DNA of 25,684 nt from Candidatus Latescibacterota bacterium (GTDB lineage Bacteria > Latescibacterota > UBA2968), in the NCBI GenBank assembly GCA_038279365.1, contig JAYODI010000027.1:36021-61704 (forward strand). The letters are read 5' to 3'. How positions within the stretch are numbered: position 1 is the first letter of the stretch; every line of letters begins with the position of its first letter. The position numbers are program-made. Positions 6,001 to 9,000 of this stretch are shown piece by piece.

Positions 6001-9000
6001 GTATTCACCACCCTTTTTGACAACGATCGCGAACAATACAAATTTCGCTGGCACCCTTATGGTTATCACCAACACGCCAACTACGATGCCCTTGTCACCA
6101 CACCAGCTTTTGACAACGTGGTGCGCCACCCCAAAATTCTCTCTGCCGTTGAGCAACTTATGGGTGGCCCTGTTTGTTTTGGTGAAATTGGTGCCCGTTA
6201 TATGGCCCCTTTCAAGGGTAATCTTCATCAAAGTTGGCACCGCGACCGCCCCCATTGGAACGATCACCCACTCAGAATGGACTACATCCAATTGATGCTC
6301 TACCTCACCGACGTTCATGCCGAAACCCATTGTTTCTCACTCTCGCCCGAATCCATTCACGAGCCCATACTCAAAGACAACGACGCACAAATCAAACGCA
6401 GTGGCATCTCCGACATTCACGGCCCAGCAGGTACGGTGTGCCTCTTCAATGTTTCGGTGCTGCACACCGCCACCACACGCCCCACAGACAAAGATCGCAA
6501 AACCTTACAAATCTATTACGGCCACCGAGATCGCAAATACTTAGCCAACGACTCTGTCATTCCTCCCTTATTTTGGCGTGATCACAAAGACCCTGAAGCA
6601 CGTGCCTTTTATGGCAACCTCAACGAAGTCACCCAAATTTATATGCGTGCTTTTGGAGACAAATAACCTCTTATACAAAAATCCGAACCTCATACCTGAT
6701 CATTGAAATAGAAAGGCTTTTATGTCCGAAAAAAAACACATCCTCATCACCGGTGGTGCAGGTTTTGTTGCAGGCATGCTCCGCGAACACTGGGGCAACA
6801 CATACAACCTGCGTCTGGCCGACATCAACCCCGTCGAAAACCTATCTGCCCACGAAACCTTTGTCAAACTCGACATCACCAAACTCGATGAATTTCGCAG
6901 TGCGTGTGAAGGCATACACACCGTCATTCATTTGGCCGCCGACAGAAGCCCCAGTGCCGACTTTTACAAAACCTTACTCGATCTCAACATTATCGGCACC
7001 TACAACGCCTTCCACGCCGCACACGAGGCCGGCTGTAAACGCCTCATCTTTGCCAGTTCGGTCAATGCCATATTGGGCTACAAAGGCAAAACACCCGTTG
7101 AATGGGATGTGCCCATTTTCCCGACCAATGTTTATGGTGCCACCAAATGCTGGGGCGAAGCCTTAGGGCGCGTTTATTCCGAAACCCACAACCTCTCCAG
7201 CATTTGTGTGCGCTTGGGCAGCCCACGTTTTGACCCCAATGAAACCTATGACCCAGACAAACCCAGTATGCTCATCAGTCCCAGAGACACCGCCCAACTT
7301 TTTGAAAAATGTGTCGAAGTTGCAAACACACCTTTTGCTATTGTGCATGGTGTATCCAACAACAAAATCAACTGGATGGGCTTAGAAGAAACCAGCCAAA
7401 TTTTGGGATATCACCCACAAGATGGCACCGCCTTACAATCCTAAAACAGACGCTAAACCTTGAAAAAACCGCTATTTCTCACAACGAGAAACAGCGGTTT
7501 TTTTAATTTTACAATACGCACAATAGCACTGCACATTATTTCACTAATTAAATCTTAAACCATTGTTTTACAATAGTTTAAAATTTAAGTTTTTTCTTGA
7601 CTTCTATACAAATGTGCACTATATTTTGGCTATCACATACTGAGGCAAACAAGCAATATAGGGAAGACGATATCATAGGTTAGGGTGCCTCAGAACACCA
7701 TAAGGAGAACAACATGTTTTCAGACACACGCAAACGGCAACAAATCAGTGAAGAACCCTCTTTGGCCTACTATTACAAAGAGGTCGAAAGACACCCCCAA
7801 CTCACCACAGAACAAGAGCGCGCCCTCACCGCACGCATCACACAAGGTGATGAAAATGCACGAGAAGATCTCGTCAAAGCAAATCTGCGCTTTGTTATTC
7901 ACGTGGCCAAACAATTCCAAAACCAAGGCCTTTCTATGGCCGACCTGATCAACGAAGGCAACATGGGCCTCATCACCGCCGCCCGAAAGTTCAAACCCGA
8001 AAAGGGCTATAAATTTATCACCTATGCCGTTTGGTGGATTCGCCAAAATATTCTCAAAGCACTCGAAGTTCAAACCCGATCCATTCGAATTCCAGCAAAT
8101 GTCATCAACGATCTCAACAAATTGCGCAAGATCGAATCGGGCCTCTCACAACATCTCGAGCGCACACCCGATGTGGAAGAGCTTTCTTACGAATCTGGTA
8201 TTCCTGTTAAAAAAGTACATTACACCTTAGAGTCCATCTACAATACCGTTTCACTGGACAGTCCCGTATACGATGACAATGCCAGCACATATTTACAAGA
8301 AACACTACCAGATACCGAGCATTTACACCCCGAAGATGCATTCATCCAAGACAACATGAACCAAGATGTACACAAAGCGCTGAACAACTTACCCGATAGA
8401 GATCGCCAAATATTGCACCTCTACTTCGGTTTTCACAACGAAGAACAAGCCACCTATCAACAAATTGGCAGTTATCTCGGCGTCAGTCGCGAACGTGTGC
8501 GCCAACTCAAAGAAGATGCCCTCAATCGCTTGCGGCATCCAGCCACCAGTCGCAAATTGGCAACCTATTGCAGTTAAACTTGCTCCGTCACATCAAATGC
8601 AAAAAAAGAGGCAAAACGCTATGTTTTGCCTCTTTTTTTGCATTTATCCTTGCCTAATGGCCCAAAATCGCACAATATATAGCATACCCATTCAAAAAAG
8701 ATTCATTTTAGAAAATTAGAAAAGGCATCCGTATGAAAATTATCATCTTAGCAACCTTGGGCGCACTCGTTTTACTCGGTGTGGGTGTGTACATTATTTG
8801 GAATTTTTCAGAACGCATTAAAATTGAAAAGCGCACCTATTTCCGCCTCGAAGACCGTTGGTTCTACGGCTTTTTGGGCTACACATCTATCACCGTCACC
8901 ATTTTCTTAATCTTGGTATTACAAACATCACTTACCCAACAAGAAAAAATATTGATCAACACCCAAACACGCTTCCAAGATGAAATGAGTGCCTTTCGCG

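Follow-up and report, generated by a model that had tools for sequence, protein, structure and literature searches.

The window analyzed here, a stretch of 25,684 nt from the genome of a Candidatus Latescibacterota bacterium (G000), contains a gene for a sigma-70 factor, and a palindrome of the LexA type lies within its promoter. The following features were assigned to this locus:

7530-7543, + strand: second, weaker LexA-type box (11.7 bits in G000), 75 bp upstream of the main box
7597-7602, + strand: -35 element TTGACT, from the sequence
7605-7618, no strand: predicted LexA operator TATAC-AAAT-GTGCA, a 14-bp palindrome in the promoter spacer (16.5 bits with the lexA/recA-trained model)
7620-7625, + strand: -10 element TATATT, separated from the -35 element by a 17-bp spacer
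7640-7693, + strand: conserved long-range 5'-UTR RNA stem, in which 7640-7647 pairs with 7686-7693, from covariation
7701-7707, + strand: Shine-Dalgarno-like sequence TAAGGAG
7714-8577, + strand: gene for a group-2-like sigma-70 factor of 287 aa with Pfam regions 1.2, 2, 3, and 4
8598-8642, no strand: strong bidirectional terminator-like hairpin of 20 pairs after the stop codon
8733-9557, + strand: conserved downstream neighbor of 274 aa with no Pfam family; it or a paralogue is in this place in 45 of 50 loci

The promoter elements place the likely transcription start near 7631-7633, and the dominant promoter dyad of the genome is TTGAC-17-TATATT. Due to the terminator-like hairpin at 8598-8642, the sigma gene is probably monocistronic, and the neighbor at 8733-9557 is probably not co-transcribed with it. 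In 45 of the 50 loci, the gene after the sigma gene is this neighbor or a paralogue of it with 37% identity, in agreement with an initial annotation of this DNA, according to which the neighbors are the same in most genomes. Downstream of the sigma gene lie, in total, two genes without an assigned function (8733-10478), and a similar second pair is located on contig C198 of G000. At 3349-5736 the window also contains a 678-aa ORF with neither a Pfam nor an NCBIfam match, and the 113-aa ORF after it gave a weak pyrophosphatase-like match.

The sigma protein lacks region 1.1, and its region 1.2 begins at residue 17 according to Pfam. The models for RpoS and RpoD score best, yet under every NCBIfam equivalog cut-off, and RpoS, RpoD, and SigB are the best model and structure matches. 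Both YAVWWIRQ of region 2.3-2.4, with the aromatic motif of region 2.3, and RERVRQ of region 4.2 are retained. With intact regions 1.2, 2, 3, and 4, no region 1.1 and a close relation to group 1, the protein has the characteristics of a group 2 sigma-70 factor. Regarding group 1, region 1.1 is missing, which also applies to the presumed primary sigma factor (C151), and the protein is not the slowest-evolving phylum-wide copy: mean identity amounts to 59% among 14 representatives of the boxed sigma, as we call the factor with the palindrome before its gene, versus 93% among 11 representatives of the C151 clade, which we infer to be the primary sigma factor of the lineage. The designation “primary-type” (group 1/2) of the initial annotation therefore holds for the group-2-like character, but not in the sense of a primary sigma factor, since region 1.1 is absent, the protein is order-restricted and its identity is far lower. 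The predicted product is a group-2-like paralogue and not the primary sigma factor, and its restricted range and paralogy suggest that it is non-essential and overlaps with other sigma factors in promoter recognition. G000 has 12 SigA-like paralogues altogether, and among nine other genomes of the phylum eight have 6-13 and one has a single copy, which represents a large expansion of group-2-like sigma factors.

In comparison to the primary clade, 20 columns are fixed differently in the boxed-sigma clade, including K115, N132, D133, Y248, and S258, and these clade-specific residues fall in regions 1.2, 2.4, 3.0, and 4.2. It can be assumed that these particular residues have a role at the promoter. 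The stretch HMVET of a solved SigA is replaced by NVIND in this sigma factor. The gene is under purifying selection, with dN/dS values of 0.05-0.25 in nine pairs (residues 20-184). Passages of PMC4598750 describe the extended -10 element as being contacted by sigma region 3. Metatranscriptome contigs of four runs cover the sigma gene in parts at a depth of ~2-3.4, which is uninformative on start site, level and induction.

Of the 53 genomes in the order, 51 have an orthologue of the sigma factor with 51-85% identity; none was found in the other two, G024 and G028, both of which are fragmented. Outside the order, no orthologue was found with this query in 52 sampled genomes, with a best identity of 47%. 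Among the 80 matches listed from the named genome collection, 18 are at least 51% identical, and their record titles read Latescibacterota in 15 cases, Gemmatimonadetes in one, and uncultured bacterium in two; the other 62 are 39-46% identical. In a quick maximum-likelihood tree, which took in 87 of 111 rows and left out 24 (22 near-identical and two atypical translations), the boxed sigmas form a single clade with a long stem and a support of 99, a value that concerns the clade itself and not its placement among long-branch paralogues. The initially reported site before the sigma orthologues could be extended to 51 of 51 orthologues from 11 genera, all in promoter register and with joint scores of 23.6-40.6 in the 50 that were scored; these counts are not independent, since the genomes are related and two of the 11 genera contribute 36 of the 51. 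The commonest box at the sigma gene is TGAAC-N4-GTTCA. In five loci from the genera g1, g2, and g6, the second box lies at -71 to -75 and scores 6.6-7.9 bits, whereas the genera g4 and g5 have it at -30 instead, with 13.2-16.7 bits. Six of the 17 loci examined have no second box above 2.3 bits, and one has 7.1 bits at -103.

Taken alone, the palindrome is not above chance in the window, with five matches at one mismatch or less versus 7.2 expected, and its significance therefore comes from context and conservation. Operator and promoter matrices were trained on 31 lexA and recA strings only, two of which are not true sites, and the outer box bases are T and A in all true training sites. With this model and promoter context, the sigma site ranks first in the 6.03-Mb genome, followed by those of lexA, the radical-SAM gene, recA, and a 110-aa unknown, and then by a site with no downstream ORF, a uvrA of 1893 aa, and a two-gene unit. 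By operator score alone, the sigma site is third of 2693 upstream regions, beside umuD and recA, and unrelated genes are listed there as well. Palindrome-only scans are unspecific and yield many unrelated high-scoring matches, exactly as the initial annotation had cautioned for its weight-matrix scan. All sites named there for G000, at lexA, recA, the umuD-umuC-like genes, and uvrA, were found again. The sigma site also agrees with the general formula T(G/A)(A/C/T)AC-N4-GT(T/G)CA given for the operator, but not with the left half TG(A/C)AC of the narrower motif in the title of that annotation.

A further caveat had been that the overlap with promoter elements might explain the conservation. 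However, among 163 promoters of G000 with the same geometry (TTGA-N19-TATAHT), only seven have the palindrome above 8 bits and the remaining 156 score -3.5 or less, which shows that the palindrome is more than promoter conservation. Moreover, palindromes also occur out of register, namely on the -10 element of umuD, as a degenerate second box at lexA, and at -30 in the genera g4 and g5, as would be expected of an operator. Before all 11 other SigA-like paralogues of G000 the box is absent, and in nine further genomes with 64 paralogues it was found only before the three orthologues (0 of the 61 others). It is likewise absent before 20 of 20 primary-sigma orthologues, with a best joint score of -2.7, and before the 30 best sigma matches outside the order, with a best joint score of 2.5. 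The reading of the palindrome as a LexA operator and the place of the sigma gene in the SOS regulon, both proposed initially, withstand the independent training, the promoter-matched control and the paralogue controls, and we retain both as predictions.

The register of the palindrome in the promoter is identical at the sigma gene, lexA, recA, and the radical-SAM repair gene. Before lexA the box is in register in 30 of 30 loci, taken from the 30 best among the 52 genomes of the order that have lexA, with G000 as one of them, which confirms the position between -35 and -10 stated previously. Before recA it reaches at least 10 bits in 28 of 31 loci, as had been indicated; the remaining three loci are truncated at contig ends, and the 28 include three boxes that have decayed to ~10 bits. 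In three genomes of genus g10 (L115, L121, and L125) the recA box is decayed together with the -10 element, an unboxed consensus promoter lies further upstream, and the sigma box is intact. The two half-sites were also said to vary in step at lexA. This does not hold for lexA, where only four of 11 distinct boxes are symmetric at positions 3 and 12, and applies better to the sigma gene, with 13 of 18.

Of 168 genomes of the phylum, 105 contain the combined boxed-promoter pattern, and the reversed control pattern occurs in none of them. Beyond the order, the box precedes lexA, recA, and the radical-SAM gene in the families f3, f4, and f9, in which no orthologue of this sigma factor was found. 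Since the same promoter design is present in families that lack the sigma factor, the boxed promoters are independent of it. The predicted operator thus reaches further through the phylum than the sigma factor, which is confined to one order. LexA proteins outside the order with the helix STNGVR(T/S)TL have a box before their own gene in 15 of 15 cases (9.8-17.6 bits), whereas four with the helix KSPNGVNNH score 7.6 or less. Exceptions to this relation of helix and box occur in the families f5, f10, and f11, as f5 has a near-identical helix and no box, and an unrelated LexA of f11 has a 16-bit site. LexA keeps the Ala-Gly cleavage site and the catalytic residues Ser129 and Lys166, and lexA and recA of the genome exceed the family cut-offs. 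A second full-length gene of the LexA family (~157-165 bits) is present in 16 genomes of the genera g7 and g10.

The direct LexA regulon looks small. No site above 8 bits was found in G000 at uvrB, two other uvrA copies, uvrD, recN, recG, recQ, radA, mutS, and mutL, with the genes located by their motifs, and ruvB has a 12-bit site. A small direct regulon leaves room for a second tier, although a second tier is not thereby shown. A dyad search over 2693 upstream regions did not reveal a second promoter class assignable to this sigma factor and returned only the housekeeping promoter and repeats. Some of the boxed loci deserve mention in their own right. The boxed uvrA encodes a double-length UvrA of 1893 aa (G000 C148:38296-43977, +), and two normal-length uvrA-like genes have no box. 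At G000 C111:17586-17700 (+), a boxed near-perfect promoter is followed by ~60 bases and then a strong hairpin, with no ORF; this candidate for a LexA-controlled small RNA is 94-95% conserved in both of the genus's other genomes and was not found in the 50 remaining genomes of the order. Another boxed promoter precedes genes for 94 aa and 266 aa (G000 C156:551-1670, +). A 54%-identical homologue of the 266-aa protein is itself boxed in family f9. Hypothetical proteins of phages make up the atlas look-alikes, and Sak single-strand annealing proteins appear at 0.89, which is no more than a lead. The boxed 110-aa protein (G000 C31:113310-113642, -) has no Pfam or atlas match, and its 45%-identical homologue in family f3 is boxed as well, which points to a conserved SOS gene of unassigned role.

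The 5'-UTR stem, which closes eight bases before the Shine-Dalgarno-like sequence, is an addition to what the initial annotation described. An alignment of 22 UTRs from eight genera has 91.5% of its cells paired, compared to 28-47% in slid controls, a comparison that leans in favor of the stem because it was proposed from the same sequences. Both sides changed in four of the eight pairs, and G-U wobbles are present. None of 500 shuffles was as high on three of five measures, and 53 and 134 were on the other two. RNAalifold recovers seven of the eight pairs, and the single-sequence z is -2.6. The genera g4, g5, and g7 stand outside the alignment, with shorter stems of other sequence in g4 and g5 and none clear in g7. 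An Rfam search of the window and seven other loci gave no match.

The LexA box of Fibrobacter succinogenes, which we take to be TGCNC-N4-GTGCA, fits the TGCAC/GTGCA form of this lineage. In contrast to that box, the TGAAC/GTTCA and TATAC forms are as common here, and therefore the box appears to bridge two known types. The second is the Gram-positive type, with TCGAAC(N4)GTTCGA as the tested box of Mycobacterium tuberculosis according to passages of PMC3381160. The M. tuberculosis box and that of this lineage are both palindromes with a 4-bp spacer and a GAAC/GTTC core, and both precede lexA, recA, and genes for an error-prone polymerase and radical-SAM proteins. However, the outer base is T/A here and C/G there, so that CGAAC...GTTCG does not apply; positions 2 and 3 are degenerate here (G/A and A/C/T), and the box is nearly always located in the -35/-10 spacer. 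These sequence features mark it as a variant form of the known GAAC-N4-GTTC type, and also of the Fibrobacter box, rather than as a new motif.

There is precedent for a LexA box at a sigma gene. As described in passages of PMC3489674, a putative SOS box lies over the housekeeping promoter P4 of sigH of Corynebacterium glutamicum, and release upon damage was proposed. Similar to the present case, a LexA-type box overlaps a housekeeping promoter of a sigma gene. However, SigH belongs to the ECF sigma factors, has an anti-sigma factor and is expressed from four promoters, and the box is putative (PMC3489674), whereas the sigma factor studied here is SigA-like, with the box on its only evident promoter and retained in all 51 genomes. 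Group 2 sigma factors such as RpoS, mycobacterial SigB, and those of cyanobacteria, as far as covered in PMC4598750, likewise consist of regions 1.2-4, lack region 1.1, and are one of many paralogues, but the protein described here stays below every equivalog cut-off and the presumed primary sigma factor of its lineage also has no region 1.1. The SOS regulons of Balneolaeota and Bacteroidetes, from a related superphylum, are small and comprise lexA, recA, translesion polymerases, and a radical-SAM protein, and their motifs differ, being a direct repeat and CTAA-N5-TTAG; the main-text passages of PMC7739468 and PMC8565304 mention no sigma factor. In the main-text passages of the open literature, leaving aside supplements and subscription papers, no account of the SOS regulon of this phylum was found, consistent with the initial annotation, and neither was a LexA-controlled group 1/2 sigma factor, although regulon supplements could list sigma factors.

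The observed site with its register, conservation and paralogue specificity, the intact sigma domains under purifying selection, and the covarying stem are best explained by a sigma factor that is repressed by LexA and released by DNA damage, a reading that we regard as highly probable. Accounting for the palindrome as LexA operator of the lineage, a LexA dimer bound between -35 and -10 would block a near-consensus housekeeping promoter. DNA damage would activate RecA and thereby LexA self-cleavage, and the sigma gene would then be transcribed along with lexA, recA, the radical-SAM repair gene, uvrA, and umuDC. The dispensable group-2-like sigma factor would bind core RNA polymerase and read promoters near the housekeeping consensus with altered preferences for the extended -10 element and the discriminator, by which transcription would be shifted toward a stress gene set, as with RpoS or SigB. 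The 5'-UTR stem may add control of translation or mRNA stability. That LexA represses the sigma gene and DNA damage releases it is, on the predicted operator, very likely; given this repression, a regulon-shifting role of the product like that of RpoS or SigB is suggested by analogy and appears somewhat more plausible than not.

Other explanations concern either the site or the product. It is most improbable that the conserved 29-mer is merely a strong or dedicated promoter, perhaps read by this sigma factor, with the palindrome as a by-product. The common register at lexA, recA, the sigma gene, and the radical-SAM gene would suit such a promoter, and so would the base before the -10 element, which is C or G in seven of seven boxed promoters versus 80 of the 156 others, but the palindrome is missing from 156 of the 163 promoters of the same geometry, is also found out of register, and marks the lexA, recA, and radical-SAM promoters of f3, f4, and f9, where the sigma orthologue was not found. 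Very little probability likewise falls to a different damage regulator, i.e., a WYL activator like PafBC or DriD, which would bind the palindrome and have LexA only as a target. The spacer position of the box would be compatible with an activator, and binding of LexA is so far predicted; on the other hand, repression fits the boxed promoters, which are near consensus as they stand, the WYL-domain matches of G000 amount to a single, marginal one, and LexA is the only recognizable regulator among the top boxed genes, which include two small proteins of unknown function. Furthermore, the core of the box matches the tested LexA box in the passages of PMC3381160 and mostly tracks the LexA helix.

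The main rival to the regulon-shifting role accepts control by LexA, but the product would act chiefly by competing for core polymerase, or by reinforcing the SOS promoters themselves, and would have no separate regulon. We consider this possible but rather unlikely. The DNA-contact motifs of the product are largely those of the primary sigma factor, a separate promoter class was not found, and in Caulobacter the timing of the SOS response is shaped by sigma use, as stated in passages of PMC12700426. However, the clade-fixed, promoter-facing residues K115, N132, D133, Y248, and S258 suggest a selected specificity, and SOS promoters of the same design exist in lineages that lack this sigma factor.

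Beyond a LexA-controlled sigma factor that shifts transcription, a two-tier SOS response can be proposed tentatively, though we doubt it more than we believe it, in which LexA would have few direct targets and one of them, the SigA-like sigma factor, would drive a second wave of damage-response genes. This wave could include the box-less genes uvrB, two uvrA copies, uvrD, recN, recG, recQ, and radA, and the 5'-UTR stem could time synthesis of the sigma factor. SigG of M. tuberculosis is damage-induced but controls no repair pathway according to passages of PMC3776920, and therefore caution is advisable regarding a second-tier role in repair.

In each genome of the order in which the sigma gene occurs, a predicted LexA box stands before it, with a consistency no lower than at recA. 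This offers the first lead on the function of one among a dozen look-alike sigma paralogues of an uncultured phylum, and the SOS box of this phylum is defined as linking known types of box. As a rule, SOS regulons are flat, with genes for repair, mutagenesis, and division directly under LexA. A SigA-like sigma factor under LexA control would make for a hierarchy in which DNA damage changes the specificity of the polymerase.
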